IMG/VR virus record: IMGVR_UViG_2778261418_000011
Span: 1 to 15,956 of that record
Length of the DNA: 15,956 bases
From: a virus
Taxonomy: Duplodnaviria; Heunggongvirae; Uroviricota; Caudoviricetes
Reading direction: 5' to 3' (one strand)
The position numbers were made by a program, and so were the translations under genes. The notes below the pieces were generated by a model. The model had not been told where the DNA came from. It saw only the letters and a list, made by a program, of their open reading frames with translations, and searched no databases. Positions 1 to 15,956 of the stretch are shown one piece after another. Each line of letters starts with the position of its first letter. The stretch's first letter is position 1.

Positions 1-344
1 GCATCCAGAAAACGGGCGTAAACCTTACGCCGGACCACCGTTCCGCCGACCAGACTCTGCAGATCTTCCGCCATCCCTGTGACCATGCCGTGCATATTAG
101 AGACTTTCAGCGTTGGCCTTGCACTGGCTCCTTTGCCGTTCATCTCAAATCCACTTCCCTGAATGGGATAGGCCTGATACTGCCGCCCCTGCCAGGTGAC
201 TGCTTCACCTTTTTCGTTCTGCTCATTACAGAAGAAATAACGATCTCCGCCGACCTCTGTCAGATCAATTTCCCAGAGCACGACCAGCGCGGATTGCTCC
301 GTTTTAGTGCACTCATTGAGTGTTTCCTGCTGTATATCCTGCAT
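1..344 (-). CDS. L: Minor tail protein L, N-terminal ~114 aa (gene continues past the window start)
   Basis: My own minus-strand translation from the ATG at 344-342 reads MQDIQQETLNECTKTEQSALVVLWEIDLTEVGGDRYFFCNEQNEKGEAVTWQGRQYQAYPIQGSGFEMNGKG..., which matches the N-terminus of lambda gpL as I recall it. The ATG overlaps the M stop codon (ATGA). It is absent from the ORF track because it runs off the window. Confidence 0.8.
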   Translation of the reverse strand, partial: MQDIQQETLNECTKTEQSALVVLWEIDLTEVGGDRYFFCNEQNEKGEAVTWQGRQYQAYPIQGSGFEMNGKGASARPTLKVSNMHGMVTGMAEDLQSLVGGTVVRRKVYARFLD

Positions 345-685
345 CAGTGAGTGACCTCTTCAAAGGTACAGTTAAAATCGGTATACATGGCATTATCCGA
401 AATGCTCCACTCCCTGCAGACAACCCGGACAGTCCTGTTGTGTTTTGGCGGACGCCACAAAAAAGCACGAATCCCGGCATGACGGGATAAAAAACTGTCC
501 AGCGCGGCACGGGAATATTCATCTGTGACACGAAATACCGGTTTAAACGTTTTCAGATCCGCATTCAGACCACCAGCCCGTCGCTGTTCATATCCGTCAC
601 CAAACTTTACCGTAATAACTGATGGCTTTCGTGTCGTCTCCATCCCCTCACGGGGGATCCAGTTAAAAACTTCAGGCTCAGGCAC
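344..685 (-). CDS. M: Minor tail protein M
   Basis: Track ORF 344..730 contains ...KPSVITVKFGDGYEQRRAGGLNADLKTFKPVF...FLWRPP..., matching lambda gpM (FGDGY, GLNANLKT, FLWTPP as recalled). The likely start is the GTG at 685-683, which sits 7 nt after a GGAGG and gives 113 aa; the ATG at 700 is an alternative. It overlaps the tape measure stop. Confidence 0.8.
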   Translation of the reverse strand: MPEPEVFNWIPREGMETTRKPSVITVKFGDGYEQRRAGGLNADLKTFKPVFRVTDEYSRAALDSFLSRHAGIRAFLWRPPKHNRTVRVVCREWSISDNAMYTDFNCTFEEVTH

Positions 686-3600: not shown

Positions 3601-3911
3601 GAGGCCTGCTTCAGACGGGCATTGACTGAATTCCACTCATCGGCGAGAGAAATAAGATGACCGGTAGCAAAAGCCCCGGCAAATGCCCCCGCCATGTTCA
3701 GTGCCGAAGATTTAGCTGTATTTATCTGATCCGTCACTTCTGCCAGTGCACGCCGCATTTCACGGGATGCAGCAGCGGACTGTCGGCTTCCATTCTGCAT
3801 GGTGCGGTAGTAATCCTGCCCCATACGCGAAGCCCGGGAGATCTCTGACTGAAATGACCGGGAGTTTGCCGAAATTTTAATAATCAGTTCACGTAATGTC
3901 GCCACACTCAT
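678..3911 (-). CDS. H: Tail tape measure protein (lambda gpH-like), 1077 aa
   Basis: Very long Ala/Gln/Glu-rich coiled-coil ORF with a central hydrophobic Gly/Ala segment and a C-terminus ending ...RRDGGLYSA, like lambda gpH (...RDGGLFS...). It lies between the G/T chaperone and M. The ATG at 3911 is only 1 nt from a GGAG; the GTG at 3905 has 7-nt spacing and may be the true start. Confidence 0.9.
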   Translation of the reverse strand: MSVATLRELIIKISANSRSFQSEISRASRMGQDYYRTMQNGSRQSAAASREMRRALAEVTDQINTAKSSALNMAGAFAGAFATGHLISLADEWNSVNARLKQASQSSDDFQASQRELMAISQRTGTAFSDNASLFARSAASMREYGYSSEEVLKVTEAISTGLKLSGASTAEASSVITQFSQALAQGVLRGEEFNSVNENGDRVIRALAAGMGVARKDLKAMADNGKLTADKVVPALISQLGALRDEYAAMPDTVSSSATKVENAFMAWVGGANEASGVTKTLSGVLNSIAGNIDTVATAAGALVAVGVARYFGNMASSAGSATAGLITAARNEVSLAEAQLRGTQIATARARAAVYRAQQAVVAARGTERQAAAEAKLTAAQASLTRNIAARTAAQTTLNNVTSVGSRLLSGALGLVGGVPGLVMLGAAAWYMMYQNQEQARESARQYAATIDEIRQKTSAMSLPEASDNEEKTRQALKEQNRLIDEQKSKIKSLQEKIAGYQYVLANPGWTTDNGFMINHMTSVKTVTEGLAEATNQLAVEQSRLTQMQGKAQSIQDVLAGLEERRVALIRQQAAEQNKAYQSLLIMNGQHTEFNRLLGLGNELLQQRQGLVNVPLRLPQATLDDKQQTALNNSERELALSRLKGEARERARLGYAADDLGFVGEAYQTARQNYINNSLDAWRNNQANKPKAHKKTEAEKTEDIYKRLIKQQKEQIALAGQNTELAKMKYQVSQGELSTLSEAQKKTLLQNAALIDQKKIREQLAAYESSLADSNASARASDEAQLLGYGEGSRMRERLQEMWSIRQTFEKKNNELLRQYQAGEIEEALWKQEKELNKKYLEERLSDQQDYYAKADALRNNWNAGLQEGLTNWADSATDYASQAADAVVSTMDGLVSNISDALAGNVVEWRNWGSSVLREVSKILMNAAIVNGLKSLSGAGGWLGTVGGWISGAVANAKGGVYTSANLSAYSNTIVDTPTYFAFAKGAGLMGEAGPEAIMPLTRAADGSLGVRAIGNVNGGGGFVYSPVYHISIQNQGSNGEIDARSARGLVDLIDSRVVSIMQSSRRDGGLYSA

Positions 3912-3921
3912 TCTCCGGACG

Positions 3922-3943
3922 AAAAAAAACCGCCGAAGCGGTT
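3922..3943 (-). terminator. Putative intrinsic terminator/attenuator between T and the tape measure gene
   Basis: Minus strand reads AACCGC-UUCG-GCGGUU followed by a U-run (plus-strand A8 at 3922-3929): a 6-bp stem with a UUCG tetraloop and U-tract, immediately upstream of the tape measure RBS. Confidence 0.35.
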
Positions 3944-3951
3944 ATGTTGAC

Positions 3952-4242
3952 TCACTGAGACACGGTTAAAAGCGCGTTTTCCAGCCCGGCAAATGGATCT
4001 GAGGCGCCTTCTGTCTGCTCCTGCTCCCACTGAAGAAGCACATCATTCAGTGGTACTTTAACCCCCTGCGCACCGTAAACAGCTGAAACAATCTGGGCAG
4101 CCCGGATATCAGCCCGTTCGTCCCCCAGCGGGCTGAACCTGTCAAATTCTGCCCACATCATGATTTCTGATGCGGACATTTCCCGGCGTAACTCTGACAA
4201 TGTGCGCCCCATCCTGAGCGCCAGCATCATCAGAAAACGCAT
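3952..4242 (-). CDS. T: Tail assembly protein T frame (C-terminal part of the G-T fusion made by a -1 frameshift)
   Basis: 96-aa ORF in the -1 frame relative to G, starting 12 nt after the G stop. This is the position and arrangement of lambda T; the slippery site is described below. Confidence 0.75.
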   Translation of the reverse strand: MRFLMMLALRMGRTLSELRREMSASEIMMWAEFDRFSPLGDERADIRAAQIVSAVYGAQGVKVPLNDVLLQWEQEQTEGASDPFAGLENALLTVSQ

Positions 4243-4253
4243 CCCCGGAAGTG

Positions 4254-4640
4254 CTACTTTTTTTTAACCTCTCCGGCATCACTGATCAGTTCCAGAGACT
4301 GGCGAAGAAGCCGGGCATGCACCGGGCCATACACGGCAATCACCTGTTCACGATCATCCTCTGAAAATACGGGTTGCAGCCCGGTATCACACAGAACATC
4401 AATGAACAGTTCAACGTCTGCCTCCAGATTTCGGCGGGCACGCTCTGCAACAGATGGCGATGTATCATCTTCCCTGGCTTTAACGATCTCCTGCCAGCGC
4501 AACCAGGCTTCTGCAGAAGGTTCCCGTAACACAACCGTTGCTCCTTCCCATTCAGGCACATCAACGGTTTTATGGCGAAACCCCGACATCGTTGCCAGTG
4601 CCAGATTACGGATATTTTTAGTCATCACATCCATCCTCAT
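4254..4640 (-). CDS. G: Tail assembly chaperone G
   Basis: Acidic ~125-aa ORF directly upstream of the tape measure and downstream of the major tail gene, ending ...GEVKKK on a slippery A-run. The TAATG overlap with the V stop supports the 4640 start; the ATG at 4625 has a better SD (GAGGA, 8-nt spacing). Confidence 0.8.
   Translation of the reverse strand: MRMDVMTKNIRNLALATMSGFRHKTVDVPEWEGATVVLREPSAEAWLRWQEIVKAREDDTSPSVAERARRNLEADVELFIDVLCDTGLQPVFSEDDREQVIAVYGPVHARLLRQSLELISDAGEVKKK
4257..4263 (-). other. Programmed -1 ribosomal frameshift site (slippery heptamer A AAA AAG)
   Basis: Minus-strand mRNA reads GTT AAA AAA AAG TAG. The heptamer A_AAA_AAG is in the zero frame at the last three codons of G, and a -1 slip continues as GTA GCA CTT CCG GGG ATG CGT..., which is the T frame. 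Confidence 0.75.
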
Positions 4641-5344
4641 TAACTGACGGTTACAGTGCAGGAAGTGGAGGTCACTTTGTTAACCGGGCTTGCTGAATCA
4701 GAAATCTCGCAGGTATACGCACCGGCATCACCGGATGCTGCTGATGCCTTACTGAACGTTGCCGCCGTCTGTCCGGAAACAGGAGAACCACCTTTCTTCC
4801 AGACATAAGAATAAGGCGGCACACCACCGGCAGCCTCAACCACCATTTCGAGTTTCGCTCCGGCAGAAACCTGCAGCGTGCTGTTTAAATCGACCTTCAC
4901 TTTCAGCGGTTCTGTCGTCAGCACAGGTTTACCTTTCAGGCGCAGGGAAAACGTTGCAGCCACAACACCATTGGTTCCTGCAGACCAGGTATGCTGACGC
5001 ACCTCTGCCATAAAGGTAAATCCGTTTCCTGACGGAAAAATAACTTTAAAGCCATACGTGGTGTCATTGTCATAGGCACTGCGCAACGCATTCTGGGCAG
5101 CATTGAGGTAAAAGTTGCCTGACATGGAAATCTCTGACGCGGCACCAAGACCGTTAATATTTTCCTGCTCAACAGAACACAGCGTGGTGACATCAATATC
5201 CTGCTTTTGTCCTGCGGTAAACTGCACCTCTTTGATTGTACAGCTCAGGCCAAGATAGCTGGCAGAATCCAGGGTTTCTGCTGTTACCGGTGCAGACGAA
5301 ATCATAATTTTCGTCAGTTGCGAACGCTCAAAATTAGAGGACAT
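4640..5344 (-). CDS. V: Major tail protein (lambda gpV-like) with C-terminal Ig-like domain
   Basis: 234-aa ORF in the V position. The C-terminal ~90 aa (..LKVKVDLNSTLQVSAGAKLEMVVEAAGGVPPYSYVWKKGG...YTCEISDSA...) looks like a bacterial Ig-like fold. RBS GGAG is 6 nt upstream of the ATG. Confidence 0.85.
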   Translation of the reverse strand: MSSNFERSQLTKIMISSAPVTAETLDSASYLGLSCTIKEVQFTAGQKQDIDVTTLCSVEQENINGLGAASEISMSGNFYLNAAQNALRSAYDNDTTYGFKVIFPSGNGFTFMAEVRQHTWSAGTNGVVAATFSLRLKGKPVLTTEPLKVKVDLNSTLQVSAGAKLEMVVEAAGGVPPYSYVWKKGGSPVSGQTAATFSKASAASGDAGAYTCEISDSASPVNKVTSTSCTVTVS

Positions 5345-5361
5345 ACTCGTCTCCTGAAAAT

Positions 5362-5382
5362 AAAAAAAACCGCCAGCGGCGG
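5362..5382 (-). terminator. Putative intrinsic terminator/attenuator upstream of the major tail gene
   Basis: Minus strand reads CCGCC-GCU-GGCGG followed by U8 (plus-strand A8 at 5362-5369), between the stop of the upstream gene (5405) and the V RBS. Confidence 0.35.
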
Positions 5383-5404
5383 GTGGGTAAAATCATTAAC
5401 GAAC

Positions 5405-5749
5405 TCAGGCTATTACCTGAAATTCAAGCGTGGCTCTGCTCAGACGGGATTCAGGATCATAACCCTGCGTTTTAGAAATAACGGAGGGTGCAAGTTCCCT
5501 CACCGCATCAAGCGCCTGTTCCCGGATATCATCTGCGTCATCAGGCACCGTTGCCCAGACATCGATCTGCACGGTAATTCTGGATTCAGCCTGACCATCA
5601 AGCACATCAGACGCCGTGTCAGACACCACAGAAAACACCAGCCACGGCGGAGATACCGCAGGTTTTCCCTCCGTCAGCGGGACCACATAAGGATAAACCT
5701 GTCCTCCGGCCAGTTGAGACAGCAGGGAATACAGTGTGGCTTCCCTCAT
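5405..5749 (-). CDS. Tail completion / tail terminator protein (lambda gpU position; family not recognised with certainty)
   Basis: 114-aa ORF between the gp10-like gene and the major tail gene, with an ATGA overlap to the upstream stop. Assignment rests on gene order; no obvious similarity to lambda U in my recollection. Confidence 0.55.
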   Translation of the reverse strand: MREATLYSLLSQLAGGQVYPYVVPLTEGKPAVSPPWLVFSVVSDTASDVLDGQAESRITVQIDVWATVPDDADDIREQALDAVRELAPSVISKTQGYDPESRLSRATLEFQVIA

Positions 5750-6195
5750 TTACTTAAGACCTCATCAATAGCCTGATTCATTCGCTGTATGGCAACCTGC
5801 GCCGCCAGCTCCTCTGTCGTATCGAAAGCCGGGCGAATGAATGGATGCGCGGGCATGTTTATCGTTCCCAGCTCCACAAAGCGCCAGTAAAACGCATTTC
5901 GGGGATCGCTGGCTTTCATGCTGTTATCACTGTTTCCGGTTCGCAGGTTCCGTCCGCGAATATGGATACCAGAAATAATTTCCCCCCGACGCTTTGAGCG
6001 CTGAGTCAGAACAACCACATTTTTCTTCAGTTTTCCGGTTCGCTCCGGCGCACGTTCAACAACCGCATCCCGCATAACTTCAGCACCGGCACGGGTGGCA
6101 TCGCGCAGCACCTTATTGTTTTCTGCCCTGCTGAGCGTCTCCAGATCCCGTGCAATATCCGCCAGACCTGAAAAATCAAGACTGAAATCCATCAC
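5746..6195 (-). CDS. HK97 gp10-family head-tail protein
   Basis: 149-aa ORF containing ...NMPAHPFIRPAFD..., which I recall as characteristic of the HK97 gp10 family. Sits in the head-tail joining block. Confidence 0.7.
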   Translation of the reverse strand: MMDFSLDFSGLADIARDLETLSRAENNKVLRDATRAGAEVMRDAVVERAPERTGKLKKNVVVLTQRSKRRGEIISGIHIRGRNLRTGNSDNSMKASDPRNAFYWRFVELGTINMPAHPFIRPAFDTTEELAAQVAIQRMNQAIDEVLSK

Positions 6196-6530
6196 ACATT
6201 CCCCTTCAGACTGCAGAGCATTTCAAGCCGGGTGGCGCGTGCATCCGGTATTGGTGGCCCTTCTATACCAAGAGTGACCCCTTTAAATGCACCGGTCAGC
6301 ACTTTCAGACGTGAAGTCGCTGTCACATCGCGCCGAAATCGCATCCAGACTCTGACCGTAGCCTGAGCGGTTTCTGCACCTCCTGATATTCTCTCCCTCC
6401 CGCTGATCCCCTTAACTTCTGCCCATACGGTTGCCCCCTCCGTCATTGTCTCCACCGGATGCCCTGACGGAGAACGGACGGTGGTGACATTCAGAATAGT
6501 TACGCGATCACGTAATCTGCCCGCCTGCAT
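6192..6530 (-). CDS. Head-tail adaptor / head closure protein
   Basis: 112-aa ORF downstream of the gp6-like connector, with a strong RBS (AGGAGG) 4-5 nt upstream of the ATG. Assignment by size and position in an HK97-type head module. Confidence 0.65.
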   Translation of the reverse strand: MQAGRLRDRVTILNVTTVRSPSGHPVETMTEGATVWAEVKGISGRERISGGAETAQATVRVWMRFRRDVTATSRLKVLTGAFKGVTLGIEGPPIPDARATRLEMLCSLKGNV

Positions 6531-6538
6531 GGTTCCTC

Positions 6539-6856
6539 CTACAAAGGAATAAAACGATAAGGCTCCAGCAGAGAAGAAAAACCAAACGGGACTGGTGCCT
6601 TGCTGACATCTGAGGAATTTTCCCGGTTTTCGTACCAGTGTCCGACCAGCAACATGAGCGCCAGCAAAACATCATCAGCTATAAGCACCCCGTCAGGATC
6701 ACCTTCCGGCACCGTCTCCTCATAAAGCTTACGGTTGATAAAATTTTCTGCCTTGCGGCAGGCAGCCCGGAAATACAGCATCAGTAACTCATCATCAGTT
6801 GCATCATCTGTATCAATACGGCACTGCGCCCTGAGTTTTTCCACTATTGCTGCCAT
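6539..6856 (-). CDS. Head-tail connector protein (gp6-like)
   Basis: Track ORF 6539..6901 would overlap the capsid stop. The ATG at 6856 (MAAIVEKLRAQ...) has AGGAG with 6-nt spacing and is the likely start. Acidic ~105-aa protein immediately after the capsid gene. Confidence 0.65.
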   Translation of the reverse strand: MAAIVEKLRAQCRIDTDDATDDELLMLYFRAACRKAENFINRKLYEETVPEGDPDGVLIADDVLLALMLLVGHWYENRENSSDVSKAPVPFGFSSLLEPYRFIPL

Positions 6857-6900
6857 CAGAAACTCCTGCCCGCAACACTGTGCGGGCATAAAAAACCGCA

Positions 6901-8127
6901 TTACGCAGCGGCTTTCTGGCGGGTTGCGGCCCCAATTTTCATCAGCTTAATCGCCTGAGAATCCACCAGCATACCGCCGGTTCGCTTGGTGGTGTAAAAA
7001 CCCACAAACGGTTTATTGGTGTACGGATCGCGCAGGATACGGGTACCGATGCGATCAACGATGGTATAGCCACGTTTGAAGTTACCAAACGCAATGGCTT
7101 TTGCATCGGCAGCAATATCCGGCATCTGTTCATTCTCAACGATGCCATACCCTGCCAGAGAAGAAGGCTGACCCAGCTCAATACCCGGACGCCACAGATA
7201 ATTTCCGTCGTTATCCTTCAGCAGACGAATGGCAAACAGGCTGCTGTTGTTCATCATAAACTTCGCGCCGCTGCGGTGCGCCTTGCGCAGGGTGTAAATC
7301 AGTTTAATGATCGCATCGGCAGTCACGCCGGAAGCCGCACCGGAAGCAATGTGCTGAAGTTTGCCAAACGCACGGGTCTTGTCATCTTCATCGGTGGACT
7401 CGTAAGCCAGAAAACCTTTTGGTTTTTTGCTGCCGTCGCCACTGGTAAAGGCAATTTCTTCCTGCTCGGCAAATTCCAGCGCCAGCTCACTGTTGATCCA
7501 GTCTTCCACATTGAAGAAAGCATCATCGAGCATTTTCTGGGTGGCCTGCGGGTTGCCGTAGATTTCCCCCATAAAGGGTTCAATCAGACCCAGTTTTGAG
7601 GTGGCGGTTTCCGGACGAGCATCCGTTTCCCCCACCCATCCGGACGTTGTGCCGCCCAGATTCACCAGTTTTTTATAATCCGAGCCACCGAGGGTGATCA
7701 CAGTGGCTTCCTGGCGCATCACCACCTCATCTTTCAGCAGCGTCAGGATGGTACGATCCAGTTCTTCCGGAATGGCATAACCACCATCTTCATCATTACC
7801 TACCTGAAGCGCCTTACGTTCAAGTTCACGCAGACCGTCTTCACGCCCCTTGCGCATAAATCCGATAAACGCTTCTTTGTGTTCACCGGCAACTTTATTT
7901 TGCGTGCCGCCTGCCGGACGCTTGATGTCTGCCAGCTCTTTTTCCAGGTCGCTTTTCAGGTTCTCCAGCTCGCTGATTTGCCCGTTCAGGCTTTCCACCT
8001 GTTCGGCCAGCTTGCCTTTTTCCTGTTCGATCGCGTCAATGCGCTTGTCGTTTTTTGCCTTAAAATCGTCAAACTTCTGCTGCAAATCCTGCGCGACCTG
8101 TTCAACGTCTTTAATATCAACAGCCAT
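6901..8127 (-). CDS. Major capsid protein, HK97 family, with N-terminal coiled-coil delta (scaffolding) domain
   Basis: 408-aa ORF whose N-terminal ~100 aa is a heptad-rich coiled coil (..QKFDDFKAKNDKRIDAIEQEKGKLAEQVESLNGQISELENLKSDLEKELADIK..) followed by a capsid body. It sits directly after a prohead protease with no separate scaffold gene, as in HK97. Confidence 0.9.
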   Translation of the reverse strand: MAVDIKDVEQVAQDLQQKFDDFKAKNDKRIDAIEQEKGKLAEQVESLNGQISELENLKSDLEKELADIKRPAGGTQNKVAGEHKEAFIGFMRKGREDGLRELERKALQVGNDEDGGYAIPEELDRTILTLLKDEVVMRQEATVITLGGSDYKKLVNLGGTTSGWVGETDARPETATSKLGLIEPFMGEIYGNPQATQKMLDDAFFNVEDWINSELALEFAEQEEIAFTSGDGSKKPKGFLAYESTDEDDKTRAFGKLQHIASGAASGVTADAIIKLIYTLRKAHRSGAKFMMNNSSLFAIRLLKDNDGNYLWRPGIELGQPSSLAGYGIVENEQMPDIAADAKAIAFGNFKRGYTIVDRIGTRILRDPYTNKPFVGFYTTKRTGGMLVDSQAIKLMKIGAATRQKAAA

Positions 8128-8140
8128 TATTTACTCCTGA

Positions 8141-8791
8141 TTAAAATTTAAGATTTTTCAGTGCATTCAGTGCGGCATCCACATCCTCAGCATCACGCAG
8201 GGATAAAGCGCCATATCCCCCGGCCATGAATGCTTTGGCCTGGGTTCGCGAGAGTCCAACATCGCGCAAGACCCGCTCAATAATTTTCTGATCAGGGATC
8301 TCCCCACGCGCCAGCGCATTTTTCACATCGCTGATGCGTGCTTCATCATTGGAAGGAAACGTCACCAGACTGACCTCCCACAGGTCGATCTCTTTCAGCA
8401 GGAATACCCCTTTTTCCCGGTCGTACTCCCAGTCTTTCAGGATGTAGCCAATAGAAAGGCCGGTTAAAGAACCGGCCTTCATATGGGCATGTGCACGTTT
8501 TGCCAGGGGATCATCATCAATGAGTAATCGTCCCCTGACATAAAGCCCGACATCATCTTCTTTCATTTCGGTGTACACACCGATGGGCTCATCCATGCGG
8601 TGCTGCCAGAGCAACGCAGGCAGCGCCTTTTTTTCGCTCCATTTCTGGAGTGTTGTGGTAAAGGCTCCGGGGACCACCACATCATCGTGGCTGTCCTTAA
8701 CACCAAAAACAGAACCGTAACCTTCAAATTCCCCGGAATCACTGACGGATTTCAGGTTCAGCGGTATATCAAGACGCTGTTTTGTCTGCAT
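8141..8791 (-). CDS. Prohead protease, HK97 family
   Basis: Track ORF 8141..8821 lies between portal and capsid. The likely start is the ATG at 8791 (MQTKQRL...), with GGAGAG 5 nt upstream; it overlaps the portal 3' end. Confidence 0.85.
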   Translation of the reverse strand: MQTKQRLDIPLNLKSVSDSGEFEGYGSVFGVKDSHDDVVVPGAFTTTLQKWSEKKALPALLWQHRMDEPIGVYTEMKEDDVGLYVRGRLLIDDDPLAKRAHAHMKAGSLTGLSIGYILKDWEYDREKGVFLLKEIDLWEVSLVTFPSNDEARISDVKNALARGEIPDQKIIERVLRDVGLSRTQAKAFMAGGYGALSLRDAEDVDAALNALKNLKF

Positions 8792-10010
8792 CTCCACTCT
8801 CCTTTTTCTTACCGTTGTCATCGCCAGCAGAGGGACTGGTGGTCATGTTCATCGGTGTCAGATACACATCACCGCCCGGTCGGGGATTCATATCTTCCAG
8901 ATCACGGCAGTCATTAGGGGAATAAATCCCCCAGTTGATCCCCGTGGCATACGCTTCAAAGCGGGATTTCATGTCGCCACGCAACAATGCTCCGGCATTA
9001 AACTTGGCGTAAAATTTTCCCTGCTTGCTCTCCCTGACCAGCCCTGTATTGATCCGCTGCTCAATACGGGTCAGATACGGCACAAGGGAATAGTTAATGA
9101 AACCAAGCCCCAGCTCTTCAATATTGTTGAAGGTGGCGCGATCGGTGTTCTGCACCATATGCAGCGGCACGCGGAACAGGCGACAGATTTCTTCCAGCTG
9201 AAACTTGCGGGTTTCCAGGAACTGGCTGTCCTCGGCATTCAGTGCCACCGTTTTCCAGTCCAGCCCCATTTCCAGAATCATCGGACGATGAGAGTTTCCC
9301 AGCCCGACATGCCGTTCCTCAAAATCCTTTTTGATACGCGCATAAGCCTGGTCAGAAAGTTGTTGATCCGTACGCAACACACCGGATGTTACCGCGCCAT
9401 TGCCAAACAATCTGGCACCATGCTCCTCGGTTGCCGCTGCCAGTGAAATGGCCTCGCGCGCATATGCAATGGGATTCAGACCGACAAGTCCATCCAGCGT
9501 CAGGGTACGCACATGCCAGATTTCATTCTGGGTCAGCACATCCACGGAACCATCCGGAAACGTCACCTGATAAACCGGCTGCCACTGGCTGTTCAGCTTC
9601 GGTTCCACACAGCCCGGATCTATCGGAAGAAGCTCCACCACTTCCCCCAGTGCCTTTACCTTGTAGGCGTAAAAATTACCCCGCAGACACAGGCAGACGA
9701 TAACCAGTTCCCAGAATTCCTGCGGCGTCATGTAGCCATTGGGTTTTGCCGAAATCAGCTTATGCAGCCGTTCATCCACCGCCCGTGTTTTAAGGGTGCC
9801 GCTGATTTTGTAGAGACTGCAGGGCAGCATACCAACAGACTCAGCCAGCACCCTGACGCAGGAATAGACCGCCGTCAGCCGCATGGCCCGCTGGCTGCTG
9901 ATCCGCTTTCCGGTATAGGTGTCGTATGACAACCCCAGCTCTTCCGCAAGCATCCCGGGCGTTGTGACGGGGGTGTTATTTTTGCGTTGAAAAAGCCCCT
10001 GGAAAAACAT
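8769..10010 (-). CDS. Portal protein, HK97 family
   Basis: 413-aa ORF directly downstream of large terminase and upstream of the protease, with an acidic C-terminus. RBS GGAGGTGA precedes the ATG. Confidence 0.9.
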   Translation of the reverse strand: MFFQGLFQRKNNTPVTTPGMLAEELGLSYDTYTGKRISSQRAMRLTAVYSCVRVLAESVGMLPCSLYKISGTLKTRAVDERLHKLISAKPNGYMTPQEFWELVIVCLCLRGNFYAYKVKALGEVVELLPIDPGCVEPKLNSQWQPVYQVTFPDGSVDVLTQNEIWHVRTLTLDGLVGLNPIAYAREAISLAAATEEHGARLFGNGAVTSGVLRTDQQLSDQAYARIKKDFEERHVGLGNSHRPMILEMGLDWKTVALNAEDSQFLETRKFQLEEICRLFRVPLHMVQNTDRATFNNIEELGLGFINYSLVPYLTRIEQRINTGLVRESKQGKFYAKFNAGALLRGDMKSRFEAYATGINWGIYSPNDCRDLEDMNPRPGGDVYLTPMNMTTSPSAGDDNGKKKESGDADKTAS

Positions 10011-10192
10011 TACTCACCTCCGGAGGCGACCCGGTGACCGCGATCGAGATAACGCGCAACCAGCCACGACCAGCACAGACACAGCGCCCCGACAACAACA
10101 AAACCTGCCGGGGGATAAATCAGCCAGGCGCCATACGCCAGCAAAAGCGCCCCCAGCACGCCCACCAGTGGCGTGAGAATTATCAGAAACAT
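10010..10192 (-). CDS. Small hypothetical membrane protein (60 aa, two predicted transmembrane helices)
   Basis: [63 protein letters not shown] fills the 193-bp gap between terminase and portal. GAGGG lies 5 nt upstream of its ATG, and its TAA overlaps the portal ATG (TAATG). Confidence 0.45.
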
Positions 10193-10203
10193 AATGCCCT
10201 CGG

Positions 10204-11961
10204 TTAAAGCGAGCGAATACCAACGCTGACCAGATGCTCAGACAGATCCGGCTCCGGTTCACCGCCATTGACCAGCATCCGGCTCATTGCTGTAAACATC
10301 GCAACAGGACCGTCGATTTTGGCTTCAGGCGTGGATTTGTTCGGGAAGATATTGTCGTTTTTGTCCGGTTTTACCGTAACGTTAGACATCATCCAGTTCA
10401 TGACCGGGTGATTGCTGTGGTGAAAACGCCCGGCATAGACCAGTGATTCCGTTTCCTTCATAGCCTCTGACAGATTGCGGACCGTCTGCGGAACTTCCAC
10501 CAGCGGTATCCCTTCTTCAGCCAGAGCCAGACTGAACTGCATTGCACTCCACGGGTCAAATCCCAGCTCCCTCAGGTTTTCACCACCAATCCATTCCAGT
10601 AAGTCACTTTTTATCTGAGCATGATCGATAACATCACCATCCGTCAGGATGAGCTTATCCATCTCCGCCCATTTCCGGTAAAGTTCTGCCTGCTGCCGCG
10701 AGCACCGCTCCAGCCGTCCTTCCGGGAGCCAGAATTTAAAATCAGCATGAACATGTCCGTTATCGGTTCGCCAGAGTTTTGCCGCCGCACAGATATCAAT
10801 CTTATGAGCAAGGTCGACGCCGACCCACATGGGATACGTTTTAAGCTCATGTCGTGGGGCAATATATTCGCATTTCTCCCACTTAATCATGTCCATCCAG
10901 GCAGACTCTGCTGTTACCCACACATTCATGTGTTTGGTAAAAAAATTCACCCGCGCAGAGACCTGTTCTTTCGCTTTTTTCGCCAGACGACGCAGATCAT
11001 CCCAGCGTTTACAGATGCCCAAGCCGGGATTCGCTTTCTGCCAGACCGTTTCATCAAACGGATCATCTCCCTCATCGAGCGTGTAAATAATCGCAAAGTA
11101 GGAATCATCTTTTACCGCGCCCTCCACGTCGCTGTTATAGCCTCGCAATACCTTGATGGCGTAATCGCGTTGCTCGTAACAAATCCCTTCCTTGTTAAAG
11201 CCCGCCGTGGTGATACCAAATAACAGGGACTGCAGACGGGCACCGGTTGCCGTTTCCAGAACGTCCCACACGTCGCGGGTTTTATGTGCATGCAGCTCAT
11301 CAATAATGGCGCAGTGGATGTTCAGACCGTCCAGGTTGTTTGCATCCGAGGAAAGCGGTTCAAATTTTGATGCGCTCTGCTCCTGGTAAATCGCCAGCTT
11401 GTTGAAATCAAACAATCGCCCGAGTGTCGACCGGGCTTTTCTGACCATATTTTTGGCGTCTTCAAACACAATTCTGGCCTGGTCACGCGTGGTTGCGGCT
11501 GAATACACCTCAGCACCGCCTTCACCATCTGCCCCCGTCATATACAGGCCGATACCCGATGACAGGGTTGATTTTGCGTTTTTACGGGCGACTTCGTTGT
11601 ACGCCGTACGGAACCGGCGCACCATCACCGGACGTCCGCTGCCATCGCTGCGCATGACAACTTCCCCGGTCTCTTCATTAACCAGCGGAATGACAAAACC
11701 AAAAATATTAATGAGGATAAATACATGCCAGTCCATCAGTTCAATGGGCTGGCCTGCCAGCGCCCCTTTTACATGGGGCACAAATTTGTAGAAATTCAGG
11801 ATGTGCTGCGCACGGGGTTCACTGAAATAAATCCCCCGCTCTTCGCCGTACTTCAGATCATCAAGAAAACGCTGGCAGGCCAGACGGACAAATTCGCCAG
11901 CGACAATTTCTCCTGCAACAACACGTTCGGCGTAGCGGATCCCGTCAGCCACTTTTGCCAT
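10204..11961 (-). CDS. Terminase large subunit
   Basis: 585-aa ORF in the canonical position between small terminase and portal, with an ATGA overlap to the small-subunit stop. Length and composition fit an ATPase-plus-nuclease large terminase. Confidence 0.9.
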
Positions 11962-12443
11962 CAGTCTCTCGCTTTTAAAAGTTCCGCCAGCGGATCAACA
12001 TCATCCGGTCCGGCGGTATTTACTTTCGCCCGGCTTGCCGGTGACATACCAAACTCTGCAAGCATCGCCCGGATCCGCTTCCAGGCATCCGCTTTCATCG
12101 CAGCAGCCGGGTGTGCCTTAATCAGCACATCACCGTTCTGCGTTTCCGTGCGGTAGGTATAACCCTCAACATCGAGTATTTCGCAGTGATGCCGGTATTC
12201 GGTGTAGGCTTCCACCAGCAACTCGAGTGCACGCGCATCAAGCTGAGAAATGATCCCTTCCGCATTCAGTTCTTCCGCCATTCGCCTGAACCAGTACTTC
12301 CCCTGCGCCCCTAAATGTTGCGGAATTTTAGGGAGACCTTTTTCGTCCTTTTTAGCGGTTTTTTTGGGGTCTTTAACGGGGCGCTTTGATGGGTTGCCTC
12401 GTATCAAATGCAGGCGTGGCGGGGTTTTCGGGGGTCCTGACAT
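11961..12443 (-). CDS. Terminase small subunit
   Basis: 160-aa ORF with a basic N-terminus (..KTPPRLHLIRGNPSKRPVKDPKKTAKKDEKG..) immediately upstream of and overlapping the large terminase. Resembles the P27-type small terminase as I recall it. Confidence 0.75.
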   Translation of the reverse strand: MSGPPKTPPRLHLIRGNPSKRPVKDPKKTAKKDEKGLPKIPQHLGAQGKYWFRRMAEELNAEGIISQLDARALELLVEAYTEYRHHCEILDVEGYTYRTETQNGDVLIKAHPAAAMKADAWKRIRAMLAEFGMSPASRAKVNTAGPDDVDPLAELLKARD

Positions 12444-12590
12444 AATCGGTTTTACCTATCAATCGTTTAATCGCATTCCCAAAAAAAAGTTTTCGAACCT
12501 GCGGCGATGCGAGGAAAGGTCAGGCGGCGGTACTGAGCAGCCAGGGCTGCAGGGATTTTACCCGCCCCTCCCCACAAGTGAGAATAATTA

Positions 12591-12941
12591 TCACCTGATT
12601 CGTTCGCGCGCTGTTTTTGCTTTGTGGCAGGGCCAGCACAGACTCTGCAGGTTGCTGTCTGCATCTGTTCCGCCATGTGCTTTCGGGATGATGTGGTCGA
12701 CAGTTTTCGCCTCGCGCACCACACCGACACGCAGACACAACTGACACAGACCTTTATCGCGCTTCAGAATACGGGCTCGAATCACCGTCCATTTTGAGCC
12801 ATAGCCACGCTGGTGGCGGCTCAGTCCGCGCTGGTGCTGCACCCAGCCTTCACCCCGATGTTTATCGCAGTAGCCAGAGCTGTCTGTTGTTGTGCCTGCG
12901 CAACCTCGCTTACGGCATGCGCGGGGGATTCGTGATGGCAT
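12591..12941 (-). CDS. HNH endonuclease (phage packaging-associated)
   Basis: C-terminal motif ...VDHIIPKAHGGTDADSNLQSLCWPCHKAKT plus an N-terminal Cys cluster. The likely start is the ATG at 12941 (MPSRIP...), with AGGAG at 6-nt spacing. Sits upstream of the terminase genes as in HK97-like phages. Confidence 0.85.
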   Translation of the reverse strand: MPSRIPRACRKRGCAGTTTDSSGYCDKHRGEGWVQHQRGLSRHQRGYGSKWTVIRARILKRDKGLCQLCLRVGVVREAKTVDHIIPKAHGGTDADSNLQSLCWPCHKAKTARERIR

Positions 12942-13023
12942 TGGAATCTCCTTAATACCGGCATTATCGCAGCCCCTCACTGAAGGGCTGCTGTAATGCC
13001 TGTTACTCAGTAACAACTGCGCC

Positions 13024-13299
13024 TTACGGTAATTTCATGAAGGCAAATACCGGACAGCCCGGATGACGAGCATCTTCTGTTGCTTCCAGCATTGATTCAC
13101 CAAACCACTCCGTCGTGGCACGACCATCAGCAGCTTTGTAGTGGAGCAAGTACTGGTTTTCGCCATCCGCATACTGAGCGCGAGCTTTAACCTCACCCCA
13201 TTCATCACTGATGCGTACTTCCACCAGTTGTGACAGTTCAAACTTAAACGGAATAGACGCGACACCAACTAAAATCGGTTTATTTTCTGTTTTTTCCAT
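13024..13299 (-). CDS. Hypothetical protein (~92 aa), function unknown
   Basis: Track ORF 13024..13350. The only SD (AGGAG) precedes the ATG ATG pair at 13302/13299, so the true product is probably MEKTENKPILVGVASIPFKFELSQLVEVRISDEWGEVKARAQYADGENQYLLHYKAADGRATTEWFGESMLEATEDARHPGCPVFAFMKLP. No family recognised. Confidence 0.5.
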   Translation of the reverse strand: MEKTENKPILVGVASIPFKFELSQLVEVRISDEWGEVKARAQYADGENQYLLHYKAADGRATTEWFGESMLEATEDARHPGCPVFAFMKLP

Positions 13300-13473
13300 C
13301 ATCGTCTCCTGATATCGAAGCCCGTCGCCGCACCGGGCGCTGATCAACATTTGAGTATTCGCGGCGAAAGAAAGAATTTATTTTATTGAATGACCGCAAA
13401 CACAGAATTTCATGCTTTCCGGGCGCTGACGCATCCTTCATTTTTCAGCAAAATATTCTGCTCTTACGGGCGA

Positions 13474-13656
13474 TCAGTTCTGCAGACACTGCCGAACACC
13501 GTCAACAATTTCGCAGACCTGAGAAGCCGTATCGAAAAGCTGGCGCGCCTTATCCAGGCTGACGCATCCCACCAATAAAAAAGGCACCAGTATCGCTACC
13601 AGTGCCCATTTCGCCGCCGTTCGCGGCATTCTGTGTGTCCAGTGTTTTCGCGCCAT
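13474..13656 (-). CDS. Small putative lipoprotein (60 aa; lipobox LVGC, ~30-aa mature peptide with 3 Cys)
   Basis: MARKHWTHRMPRTAAKWALVAILVPFLLVGCVSLDKARQLFDTASQVCEIVDGVRQCLQN has a basic n-region, a hydrophobic h-region and an L-V-G-C lipobox. Its start lies 1 nt after the stop of the upstream 37-aa ORF. Confidence 0.45.
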   Translation of the reverse strand: MARKHWTHRMPRTAAKWALVAILVPFLLVGCVSLDKARQLFDTASQVCEIVDGVRQCLQN

Positions 13657-13657
13657 A

Positions 13658-13771
13658 TCACCACCAACGCACAGCCCAAATCAGAACAGCGACCGCCACA
13701 AGGCGAATTGCAAAGGCCGCAGCCCTTGTCAAATCAAGGCTCGCGGGAGTTTCCATTTCAATACCTTTCAT
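13658..13771 (-). CDS. Small hydrophobic peptide (37 aa, C-terminal transmembrane segment)
   Basis: My own translation of an ORF below the track's size cut-off: MKGIEMETPASLDLTRAAAFAIRLVAVAVLIWAVRWW. GAGG lies 9 nt upstream of the ATG. Positions checked codon by codon. Confidence 0.25.
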   Translation of the reverse strand: MKGIEMETPASLDLTRAAAFAIRLVAVAVLIWAVRWW

Positions 13772-13863
13772 AATGGACAACCTCAAAAAGAATCTTTTAT
13801 ACTTTCCCACGAGGATTTTCTCCCTACTCACTAATCACAATTTCCCCTTTGACGTGAAAACTA

Positions 13864-13896
13864 AAAACCCCGGACTGTTCCCCCAGCCGGGGTTTT
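13864..13896. terminator. Bidirectional intrinsic terminator downstream of the endolysin
   Basis: Perfect 10-bp stem AAAACCCCGG / CCGGGGTTTT (13864-13873 and 13887-13896) with a 13-nt loop. A/T-rich flanks on both sides give a U-tract in either orientation. Begins 8 nt after the endolysin stop. Confidence 0.55.
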
Positions 13897-13903
13897 GTTT
13901 TAC

Positions 13904-14287
13904 TTATCGCTTCAGCTGAAAGTGAGGTCCGTCTTTCAGCGTTTTCCAGTCCCCGCCCCATTCGATAGCGATCCCCAGCTCTGCGGCAGCCTGCTTAAAT
14001 GCCTGTGCGATTTTCTCGTACAGAGGCCACTCCCATGACACCTGGCTGCCGATGTAGGCCACAACATCCACCGCATCACCGGTCAGGTGGCGGCTGTTCA
14101 TGGTCTGGCTTTTCCCTTCCGCAACCAGCTGTTTCTGGCGATACTTACTGCGCAGGCCTTCCGTAATACCGAAATCAACCTCCGTCAGCTCCAGCGCACG
14201 GCGAACTACAGCAACCAGCTGTGGTTTGACACCCTCCAGATTTTTTTCACTGCGACGGCTGAATCTGAATTTACCCGGCATATTCAC
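13904..14287 (-). CDS. Endolysin, peptidase M15 family (L-alanyl-D-glutamate peptidase type), no signal-anchor
   Basis: 127-aa ORF with the metal-ligand pattern ...SRHLTGDAVDV... and ...DGPHFQL, typical of M15 zinc peptidase endolysins as I recall. Hydrophilic N-terminus. ATGA overlap with the upstream holin-like gene. Confidence 0.8.
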   Translation of the reverse strand: MNMPGKFRFSRRSEKNLEGVKPQLVAVVRRALELTEVDFGITEGLRSKYRQKQLVAEGKSQTMNSRHLTGDAVDVVAYIGSQVSWEWPLYEKIAQAFKQAAAELGIAIEWGGDWKTLKDGPHFQLKR

Positions 14288-14559
14288 CTCAACAATGGAA
14301 AGATTTTTGTGACGTTCCCGCGTGCGCGTATCACCAGCACGCAGAACAGCAGGTTAAAAAACACTTCCAGCCAGCCCGTTGCTAACGGGCGACCACACAG
14401 ATAGCTGAGGGGCGCAAAGGCATACAGCAGCATCAGCAGCCAGGCCAGCCATGACATCAGCGGTTTATGTCTGGAATCACGGCGACGATAAAAAAAGAGC
14501 GTCAGCACGATAACCGTGCATAACGCCACATTCAGCAATCCGGGAAGGTTACTTAACAT
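14284..14559 (-). CDS. Holin-like membrane protein B (91 aa, about three transmembrane helices); possible holin or antiholin
   Basis: Track ORF 14284..14613. The likely start is the ATG at 14559 (MLSNLPGLLNVALCTVIVLTLFFY...), with GGAGGAGG at 5-nt spacing. It lies directly upstream of the endolysin. Confidence 0.55.
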   Translation of the reverse strand: MLSNLPGLLNVALCTVIVLTLFFYRRRDSRHKPLMSWLAWLLMLLYAFAPLSYLCGRPLATGWLEVFFNLLFCVLVIRARGNVTKIFPLLR

Positions 14560-14941
14560 TGCCGCCTCCTCCACCCCGCAGGCGGGAAAACAGGACGGAC
14601 ACCAGCGATGCAATATCCTGTTGGTGGATAAACGACAGAATCTTTACCGACACCACCGATACCAGCACCGCACACAGTGCATCCGCCGATGTACCGTCAT
14701 AACCTGTTTTTGCTGCAATCCAGGCTGACAGCACGCGCGCTCCCAGCACGCCGACAATGAACGACACCAGAAAATGTGCCGCCACCCGCCAGGCTGAAAG
14801 CGCCTGCGGCATCGTTGCCACAAACAACGCTCCGGCGAACGCCCCAAACACAATCCCGAAATCCGTCCCGGTAAACAGTCCGAATACCGTCGCCCCGCCG
14901 AGCGCAGCGGCTGTACCAGAACCGGATAAGGGTTCAGACAT
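14549..14941 (-). CDS. Holin-like membrane protein A (130 aa, several Gly/Ala-rich transmembrane helices)
   Basis: First gene of the lysis cassette, with GGAG 8 nt upstream of the ATG. Its Gly-rich C-terminus (RLRGGGGGNVK) is encoded by the SD of the next gene. Confidence 0.6.
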   Translation of the reverse strand: MSEPLSGSGTAAALGGATVFGLFTGTDFGIVFGAFAGALFVATMPQALSAWRVAAHFLVSFIVGVLGARVLSAWIAAKTGYDGTSADALCAVLVSVVSVKILSFIHQQDIASLVSVLFSRLRGGGGGNVK

Positions 14942-15183
14942 ACTTTTTCTCCTGTAAAGAAAAAAGGGCCACCAGCAGCCCGCAAAAAAACGCCCACCAA
15001 AGGCACCCGCAGATGCCTTTGGTGTGGAGTTATTTGATGTGCGCCGGTCGTGGCGCGAGGAAGTGAAATAAGACTTACCTGAAATTAAGGTTAATCTTAT
15101 GGTTTAAACCATTTTTAATGCTTAGTAATATGAACTCGTCCCCAGAAGGGGCCAATACTTATTCTTCTTCACGGACTTTGTCC

Positions 15184-15215
15184 CGCGGCGTTAATCCGAC
15201 AGCCGCGCTTTTTTT
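15184..15215 (+). terminator. Plus-strand-oriented terminator-like hairpin
   Basis: CGCGGC (15184-15189), 12-nt loop, GCCGCG (15202-15207), then C and T7 (15209-15215). Confidence 0.4.
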
Positions 15216-15250
15216 GCGCCATATTCATCGCTGACTTATATGGCATTGCC

Positions 15251-15286
15251 ACACGGACATTATCAGTGTCCGTGTTTTCTTTTTTT
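15251..15286 (+). terminator. Plus-strand-oriented intrinsic terminator
   Basis: Perfect 9-bp stem ACACGGACA / TGTCCGTGT with a 7-nt loop, followed by TTTCTTTTTTT. Confidence 0.55.
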
Positions 15287-15297
15287 GAATTCAGAAT

Positions 15298-15324
15298 AAA
15301 AAAAACCGCCCAATGGAGGCGGTT
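15298..15324 (-). terminator. Minus-strand intrinsic terminator between the tRNA array and the lysis cassette
   Basis: Minus strand reads AACCGCC-UCCAUUG-GGCGGUU followed by U8 (plus-strand A8 at 15298-15305). Confidence 0.6.
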
Positions 15325-15688
15325 GGTCAATGCATGAGATCAATCATTTTTATTGTAATAGAAATCGAGGTGTCGGGTGCCTCCCGAAATATCCATCCCT
15401 ACAACAGATATTGTGATTCCCCGTTAAACCACTATATAAACCACCCTCGCACTGAGGAACACCTCTGCGGTGCTGTTTACAACACCAGAATGATGCTTCA
15501 CCGACCCTGCCAGGAAATACAAAATCTCCACCGATAATGCATCATTCTGCTGCCGTAAAAATTCAGCACTGAGGCTACACCCGACCTCAAATCATAGCCA
15601 GAGAACAGAATACCATTTAAACACAATCCGCTCCCACGTAATAAAAAATACGCCAGTGCTGTAATACAATAAGGCTTATTACAAATGT

Positions 15689-15763
<75 letters not shown>

Positions 15764-15766
15764 ATA

Positions 15767-15842
<76 letters not shown>

Positions 15843-15844
15843 AC

Positions 15845-15921
15845 TGGACCGCCACCGGGGACTCGAACCTCGCACACTTAACTTAAAGGGTTGACGCTCT
15901 TTCCTGATGAGCTAGTGGCGA
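15845..15921 (-). pseudogene. Degenerate tRNA-like gene (possible decayed tRNA-Arg-like member of the array)
   Basis: A 77-nt cloverleaf can be drawn (acceptor stem with U1-G72, D-arm GCUC/GAGC, T-loop UUCGAGU, encoded CCA). However the anticodon loop is CCUUUAA (C where U33 is normally invariant), and there are A-C mismatches in the anticodon and T stems. Confidence 0.4.
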
Positions 15922-15922
15922 T

Positions 15923-15956
15923 TGGTGGCCCTTGCTGGATTTGAACCAGCGACCTG
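15923..15956 (-). tRNA. tRNA 3' fragment (T-arm and acceptor end; resembles E. coli ileX-type tRNA-Ile2), truncated by the window edge
   Basis: Reverse complement ...GGTCGCTGGTTCAAATCCAGCAAGGGCCACCA gives a T-stem GCUGG/CCAGC, T-loop UUCAAAU, acceptor 3' strand and CCA. The anticodon is outside the window. Confidence 0.5.

Follow-up and report, generated by a model that had tools for sequence, protein, structure and literature searches.

Two small membrane proteins encoded in tandem directly before an endolysin gene may act together as one holin, as a holin and its inhibitor, or independently of each other. This question is raised by a lysis locus in a stretch of viral DNA of 15,956 nucleotides (nt) (Caudoviricetes; IMG/VR record IMGVR_UViG_2778261418_000011, positions 1 to 15,956), here called the window, which is a phiP27-like lambdoid prophage of Escherichia coli with the layout of a lambdoid late region. 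In this locus two genes, here called gene 1 and gene 2, precede the gene of a soluble M15 endolysin, and the original prediction, made from the sequence of the window, had proposed that they encode either a holin and an antiholin as separate genes or a holin and an accessory lysis regulator. We conclude with high confidence that the products of the two genes are translated together as a holin module of two proteins, which controls lysis at the inner membrane for the soluble endolysin, and we assign a probability of about one half to the reading in which this module is a translationally coupled holin system with a pro-lytic gene 1 and with gene 2 as co-holin or timing partner. The finding is already known: near-identical genes have been annotated as holins since 2002, Pfam includes both protein families, and a holin/antiholin pair has been proposed in print for homologues; the window itself thus adds nothing new, and the interest lies in the division of labour between gene 1 and gene 2. 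Temperate phages of E. coli, Klebsiella, Salmonella, Pseudomonas, Burkholderia and Ralstonia commonly carry the module, its database labels are inconsistent (holin/holin or antiholin/holin), and the roles of its two proteins bear on whether Gram-negative systems include a genuine holin of two components.

The gene pair, its junction and its proteins

All three lysis genes are read on the minus strand, as are their signals. Gene 1 (14941..14549; 130 amino acids, aa) starts with an ATG at 14941..14939, 7 nt behind a Shine-Dalgarno sequence (SD) AGGAG at 14953..14949 that was read from the sequence, and ends with a TAA at 14551..14549. Gene 2 (14559..14284; 91 aa) extends from an ATG at 14559..14557 to a TGA at 14286..14284, so that its start and the stop of gene 1 share 11 nt in different frames (ATGTTAAGTAA, 14559..14549). 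The SD of gene 2, GGAGGAGG (14572..14565), is separated by 5 nt between its last G and the ATG and corresponds to the gene 1 codons Gly123-Gly126 (GGT GGA GGA GGC) within the C-terminal tail ...RLRGGGGGNVK. An SD of gene 2 embedded in the Gly-rich tail of gene 1 was part of the original prediction, and it was confirmed together with all coordinates, protein lengths and the SD itself when these were compared with the open reading frames (ORFs) and the sequence. The endolysin gene (14281..13904; 125 aa, Peptidase_M15_4 in Pfam and phrog_465, endolysin, in PHROG) starts with an ATG 2 nt past the gene 2 stop, and its SD, GAGG (14290..14287), lies inside the final codons of gene 2. Hydropathy revealed neither a hydrophobic segment nor a signal-anchor-release (SAR) domain in this enzyme, and, with its Peptidase_M15_4 match, this agrees with the earlier description of tandem membrane-protein genes in front of a soluble M15 endolysin.

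With a start that overlaps the upstream stop and an SD inside the upstream ORF, the junction has both features by which a translationally coupled pair is recognized, and the geometry of the 11-nt overlap, as far as it can be judged from the sequence, is typical of translational coupling. Folding of the RNA at the junction gave z = -0.14 against shuffled controls, and no structure was predicted that would sequester the SD or gate it by a hairpin. The proposal of separate genes in place of dual starts also held, as each gene has a single Met start without an extra basic residue upstream: neither in gene 1 (MSEPLSG) nor in gene 2 (MLSNLPG) did we find the second Met or the N-terminal basic residue of a lambda-type dual start. 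Gene 2 has an upstream in-frame TTG (14613), located 18 codons upstream and inside gene 1, before which no SD was noticed.

Comparison with holin families supported the holin-like character first assigned to both proteins, since both match Pfam families named as putative holins. Gene 1 belongs to Phage_holin_8 (PF16931), for which it scores 81.7 bits (curated cut-off 26.4; E 6e-23) over residues 1-124 of 130, and matches the holin group phrog_198 in PHROG, and gene 2 matches Phage_holin_3_7 (PF05449) over its full length, scoring 77.9 bits (curated cut-off 25.4; E 6e-22), as well as the holin group phrog_217. The multi-helix membrane topology attributed to the two proteins was likewise seen in their hydropathy. 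The gene 1 protein is Gly/Ala-rich and shows four hydrophobic helices and a C-terminal amphipathic helix by hydropathy, placed by hydropathy and AlphaFold secondary structure at residues 7-24, 28-42, 50-79, 84-107 and 110-122; hydropathy and the positive-inside rule are most simply satisfied by an N-in/C-in orientation. By the same means, three transmembrane (TM) helices (5-27, 33-54 and 63-90) and an N-out/C-in topology as in class I holins are predicted for gene 2, in which the strongly basic first loop (RRRDSRHK), a conserved RGNV motif and a basic C-tail are all predicted to face the cytoplasm. Residues G81, N82 and V83 of gene 2 are invariant, H31 is nearly invariant in both alignments and R26 in one only. 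The AlphaFold2 models reached a mean predicted local distance difference test score (pLDDT) of 61 for gene 2 and 51 for gene 1, values that do not allow searches by fold, so their secondary structure alone was used, and at this low confidence its helix boundaries agree with hydropathy for both proteins. Both products are small, contain at least one TM domain (TMD) and are encoded beside an endolysin gene in a late operon, which corresponds to the structural definition of a holin.

Conservation of the pair and its endolysin partners

The closest relatives of the window show the module in the same form. The DNA of the lysis region is 99% identical to prophages in ovine E. coli, and in the Stx2e phage phiP27 (Recktenwald & Schmidt 2002, as cited in PMC12571312) the cassette L28/L29/L30 has the same order and the same 11-nt overlap, with 91.7% nucleotide identity to the window; the proteins of gene 1, gene 2 and the endolysin gene show 88.5%, 98.9% and 96% identity, respectively. 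The same cassette is found in phiSTEC1575-Stx2k, Rac-SA53 and SerU-LTIIb ('holin1/holin2'), and in SerU-LTIIb the pair is joined to a different endolysin, which is followed by the LT-II operon. The module stands directly beside toxin genes in Stx2e and LT-II phages, downstream of them in the Stx2e phages, which suggests that its timing bears on the release of toxin after antibiotic induction. At 4922-5346 of the SerU-LTIIb locus (L002), upstream of a second tRNA pair, gene 1 is present once more as an orphan ('holin1a'), accompanied by 43 bp of gene 2 sequence, which points to a duplication of the tRNA-holin junction.

We built hidden Markov models from phage homologues of both proteins and scanned every fetched locus with them. 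The adjacent pair was present in the same order in 360 loci, which comprise 114 distinct junction sequences, and the pairwise ratio of nonsynonymous to synonymous substitutions (dN/dS) among close relatives had a median of 0.18 in gene 1 and of 0.28 in gene 2, which shows both genes to be real and under purifying selection. With the Pfam E-values, the multi-helix membrane character and the SD cores described below, these ratios place the features of the pair well outside what chance would give. Conservation of both ORFs, on which the original prediction of a functional pair depended, is therefore well documented. Among the loci anchored on a gene 2-type gene, a gene 1-type gene is located immediately upstream in 122 of 123, and the exception starts at a contig end. 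Conversely, a gene 2-type gene follows the gene 1-type anchor in 76 of 80 close relatives (the others being cut by contig ends or having truncated genes), in 56 of 57 Enterobacterales species genomes with room for it, in all 34 complete phiCTX-like loci and in 80/80 D3-like loci. PF16931 followed by PF05449 was identified in HK639 and mEp390, in Cronobacter phage ENT39118 and the epsilon15-like Enterobacter phage BUCT554, in the Casjensviridae (Klebsiella phages Seifer and KPN U2874, and Pectobacterium phage MA11), in phiCTX and Pseudomonas phage D3, and in the P2-like phages KS5 and KS14 of Burkholderia and RSY1 of Ralstonia. The sole clean exception is a locus of a metagenome-assembled Enterobacter genome (L247, 2501-3791), in which a gene 1-type gene is followed by a GH19 endolysin without a PF05449 gene, and an 87-aa DUF7940 protein with two TM segments is encoded after the endolysin. 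The exceptions are asymmetric, in that the gene 1-type gene occurs once without its partner (L247) and as the orphan 'holin1a', whereas the gene 2-type gene was never seen without a gene 1-type gene. A profile search with the gene 2 family returned about 513 clusters at 50% identity, and the best-scoring 150 of these are 55-131 aa in length, mostly 88-131. Three rare database proteins of 155-219 aa that contain both Pfam domains (P0033, P0094 and P0119) were set aside as evidence for an interaction; they shift into the gene 2 frame within the G-rich tail of gene 1 (...SRLR/VEEAAMLSNL..., the slash marking the shift), presumably by a 1-nt indel, and, with clusters of no more than 1-2 sequences each, they probably reflect sequencing errors or represent pseudogenes.

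The enzymes behind the pair are diverse. An ORF of a Pfam-confirmed endolysin class starts no more than 200 nt past the pair in 282 loci, and the partners fall into four large groups and singletons, including GH19, PG_binding_1+Muramidase, M15_4, GH108+PG_binding_3, GH24 and CHAP enzymes (one further singleton ORF after gene 2 has no Pfam match). At least six kinds of soluble endolysin, unrelated to one another, are thus combined with the pair, and a strongly hydrophobic N-terminus was found in none of the partner groups. Because these partners are unrelated folded cytoplasmic enzymes without a hydrophobic N-terminus, the module would be expected to open large, non-specific holes and not to act as part of a pinholin/SAR system.

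More distant phages also have members of both Pfam families, arranged as in the window (KS5 gp35/gp34, KS14 gp29/gp28, KL3, AP3, phiCTX ORF9/ORF10, RSY1 ORF13/ORF14 and D3 orf89/orf90), with 18-30% identity to the window for gene 1 and about 30% for gene 2. The endolysin gene follows the pair directly in KS5, KS14, KL3, AP3, phiCTX and RSY1, where it encodes a PG_binding_1 muramidase, compared with the M15 enzyme of the window, whereas no endolysin follows the pair in D3. In KS5, KS14, KL3, AP3 and phiCTX the SD also lies in the final codons of the first gene, but in this group the two genes are separated by 1-4 nt or overlap by 4-8 nt, as against an overlap of 11 nt in the window. D3 resembles the window in its surroundings, with tRNAs (Gly, Asn, Thr) directly before the holin pair and a gene of an HNH endonuclease downstream.

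Across all junctions, the signal for gene 2 appears to be kept more strictly than the peptide in which it is embedded. Of the 114 distinct junctions, 83 have a GGAG/GAGG core 4-16 nt before the gene 2 start, whereas such a core occurs in 3.3% of the control windows taken from inside gene 1. In the clade of the window, codons 124 and 125 of gene 1 are GGA in 51/51 and 48/51 distinct sequences, respectively, whereas the flanking Gly codons in the same 51 sequences vary at the third base. In the Enterobacterales the two genes predominantly overlap by 11 nt or by 14 nt, which leaves their relative frame the same, and other lineages show overlaps of 8, 4 or 1 nt or gaps of 1-7 nt; the tail peptides of gene 1 differ between lineages (RGGGGGNVK, RWRGGTNGNK, IPGRKDDDQS, SDIGGPK and LFRKG). 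As the SD is kept but the tail peptide is variable, the Gly-rich tail seems to be mainly under selection at the RNA level, for the initiation region of gene 2, and the Asn/Asp-Val/Gly residues near the end of gene 1 follow from the ATG of gene 2 embedded there. The Gly-rich tail of gene 1 is in this way probably for the most part a by-product of encoding the SD and start codon of gene 2, and not a functional peptide motif.

Proposed division of labour between gene 1 and gene 2

Searches of the literature by Pfam name or number returned no functional study of PF16931 or PF05449, and the evidence for a role of gene 1 comes from a study of toxin release. In PMC12571312, the 130-aa orthologue of gene 1 (WP_032083190) was replaced in two porcine strains of Shiga toxin-producing E. 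coli (STEC), which abolished the enrofloxacin-induced release of Stx2e, and a plasmid with the gene 1 orthologue restored release and also conferred it on two non-responsive strains. The locus is treated there as a single holin gene, and the 130-aa protein is framed as a toxin-release factor. When we mapped the primers of that study on the window (14499-14991), the replaced segment corresponded to 14549..14941, so that the SD and the first 11 nt of gene 2 were lost as well; by our reading of the reverse primer, the kanamycin ORF is left without a stop and continues into gene 2 out of frame, and the complementing fragment carries gene 1 only. Gene 1 alone thus restored release though the start of gene 2 had been deleted, which argues against gene 1 being a pure inhibitor, and we regard this as moderate evidence that gene 1 acts positively in release. 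The antiholin part of the original prediction consequently found no support, as the only experiment with a gene 1 orthologue is pro-release and at odds with a scheme in which the upstream gene is the antiholin.

With moderate confidence, we therefore suggest that gene 1 is the hole-former or an essential component of the holin and that gene 2 is its co-holin or timing partner, a division of labour that would depart from the textbook scheme of an upstream antiholin and a downstream holin. In the proposed sequence of events, the late transcript would read through the terminators upstream of gene 1, and ribosomes ending gene 1 would feed gene 2, with the strong SD adding to its initiation, so that both proteins would be made at a fixed ratio. 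The two proteins would then build up in the inner membrane and permeabilize it at a set time, opening holes through which a cytoplasmic endolysin could pass in its folded state; this enzyme is an M15 peptidase here and belongs to at least five other enzyme types in relatives. A joint action of two small membrane proteins on lysis timing is described for SPP1 (gp24.1/gp26) and for F1-cluster phages (LysF1a/LysF1b); their families are unrelated to the present pair, and their hosts are Gram-positive or mycobacterial, with different envelopes.

Several points weigh against this favoured reading. Many of the loci are near-identical and represent roughly nine clades, so that the counts overstate independence, and the asymmetry of the exceptions comes down to one metagenome-assembled genome and one duplicated fragment. 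The assay of the STEC study was an enzyme-linked immunosorbent assay (ELISA) of toxin in overnight supernatants, with over-expression from a multicopy plasmid, and, as its strains were reported to be without an endolysin, it is not a clean holin test (PMC12571312); a truncated gene 2 product may also have been made from an internal start in the deletion strains. With pLDDT values as low as those of the two models, the topologies are those of hydropathy and the positive-inside rule only. Finally, gene 2 looks like the more canonical holin, as it has three TMDs in an N-out/C-in arrangement, ends in a basic C-tail and immediately precedes the endolysin, and several groups have labelled gene 2-type proteins as holin and gene 1-type proteins as antiholin (PMC3091744, PMC5247547).

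These last two points lead to the rival that survives best, a serious one even if we consider it on balance unlikely, in which gene 2 is a class I holin and gene 1 a separate antiholin that heterodimerizes with it and delays triggering, as proposed for Y and LysA of P2. Besides the topology, C-tail and position of gene 2, the upstream position of gene 1 would fit this explanation, as an inhibitor encoded there would be produced before the holin. The class I layout of lambda S105/S107, with about 100 aa, three TMDs, an N-out/C-in topology and a basic C-terminus in the cytoplasm, recurs in gene 2, which is likewise located in a lambdoid late operon behind Q-readthrough terminators; lambda S differs, however, in that neither gene of the pair has a dual-start motif, the Pfam family is another one, and the partner is separate and unrelated. 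The usual model for a pair of this kind is indeed P2, where Y (holin) and LysA (antiholin) are separate proteins with three and four TMDs in one cassette, and gene 1 resembles LysA in size and TMD number (141 aa and four TMDs in LysA). No homology of the pair to Y or LysA was detected, though, as Y belongs to PF04550, LysA matches no family and BLASTP gave E = 4.4. In P2, the endolysin gene K is located between Y and LysA, and LysA is non-essential. Antiholins are usually dispensable and patchy in their distribution, whereas gene 1 is never missing beside gene 2, and the restoration of toxin release by gene 1 alone, where the SD and start codon of gene 2 had been lost, speaks against its role as an inhibitor. 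The labels themselves are those of Burkholderia P2-like phages, in which the upstream gene was named 'putative antiholin' and the downstream DUF754 gene 'holin' (Lynch et al. 2010, PMC3091744; Roszniowski et al., PMC5247547); they are carried by KS5, KS14, KL3 and AP3, and the GenBank record of phage Seifer has 'hypothetical Holin-antiholin' for both genes, but the published labels were derived from position and TMD counts only.

A rather doubtful further explanation would combine the PF16931 and PF05449 proteins in a heteromeric holin that obligately needs both, and thus in a separate two-component class of hole-formers in phages of Gram-negative bacteria. Neither protein would be inhibitory, and the label 'antiholin', widespread in databases for the upstream gene, would be wrong; the fixed order and the overlap of the genes would then set the stoichiometry of the complex.

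We consider it improbable that the two genes encode independent, redundant holins, each able to release the endolysin and kept for robustness or for host-specific timing. Both families do bear holin names, the identities of gene 1 and gene 2 vary independently among close relatives, which points to free recombination between the two genes, and several holins per endolysin have been reported in P. aeruginosa. Redundant genes, however, are normally lost in some lineages, and from Burkholderia to E. coli phages these two have stayed together in one order and with a tight junction, and singletons are all but absent. As to P. aeruginosa, the pyocin holin Hol (PA0614) may resemble phiCTX ORF9, a PF16931 protein according to Pfam. 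AlpB (PA0908) and AlpC (PA0909) of the same species, possible further relatives of the pair, have been called holin and antiholin, and alpB is needed for self-lysis (PMC7969949). Pattern scans for proteins of the PA0614/PA0908/PA0909 type retrieved only phiCTX-like and D3-like prophages, and cluster look-ups for the Pseudomonas proteins returned only proteins from Achromobacter, Collimonas, a Burkholderiales metagenome bin and other metagenomes.

That one of the two proteins has no part in lysis and rides along in the late operon, serving e.g. superinfection exclusion or toxin export, is very improbable: neither family has a verifiable biochemically characterized member, the 130-aa protein has been framed as a toxin-release factor (PMC12571312) and D3 has no endolysin after the pair, but the constant proximity of an endolysin-class ORF in the 282 loci, whatever the enzyme type or phage architecture, is a fixed synteny that cargo genes (morons) do not show.

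Surroundings of the lysis genes

The late region reads in the order Q and methylase (both taken from a near-identical prophage), tRNAs, two hairpins, gene 1, gene 2, endolysin, small ORFs, HNH endonuclease and terminase. The two tandem intrinsic-terminator-like hairpins (14966..15024, minus strand) are located directly upstream of the SD of gene 1, which is the expected layout of a late operon read through by an antiterminator, and a gene of the Q antiterminator is found about 2.7 kb upstream in the 99%-identical prophage. Further upstream, at 15251-15324, there is a terminator-like bidirectional hairpin pair on both strands. The stretch of about 750 bp from the tRNAs to gene 1 corresponds to the slot occupied by the stx2e operon in phiP27; in the window it contains hairpins and no convincing ORF, only short ORFs of 38 and 53 aa without family assignment. 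The phage tRNA cluster (Gly-UCC, Thr-UGU and Lys-UUU; 15689-15921, minus strand) lies upstream of the lysis genes, and the end of the window (15956) cuts off all but the start of a fourth tRNA, which is Ile in the 99%-identical prophage. These tRNAs were the only matches of an Rfam scan.

Downstream, a terminator-like hairpin with a T-run (13870-13888, minus strand) comes straight after the endolysin stop and before two small ORFs on the same strand. The first (13658..13771; 37 aa) is of uncertain status, has one C-terminal hydrophobic helix and ends 1 nt before the second; it is annotated as hypothetical in RefSeq and occurs in 36 related loci. The second (13474..13656) encodes a lipoprotein of 60 aa with the lipobox LLVGC, which matches phrog_7528 (unknown function), has a mature part of 30 aa with 3 Cys and is kept in 67 related loci; in phiP27 this ORF is unannotated and overlapped by the annotated L32. 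The lipoprotein is a candidate outer-membrane lysis component, similar to an o-spanin. The spanins of phiP27 have been described as singleton families with the shortest periplasmic span (Kongari 2018, PMC6139136), and the 37-aa and 60-aa ORFs may be this pair, but the 37-aa protein has hardly any periplasmic domain. The phiP27 proteins L31 and L32 as annotated are not spanin-like and were not used to assign the downstream ORFs. Beyond these, a gene of an HNH endonuclease (12591-13016, minus strand; Pfam HNH, E 3e-16) is located just upstream of the terminase small subunit, an order which is typical of HK97-like cos packaging modules and is common to phiP27 (L34) and D3 (orf96).

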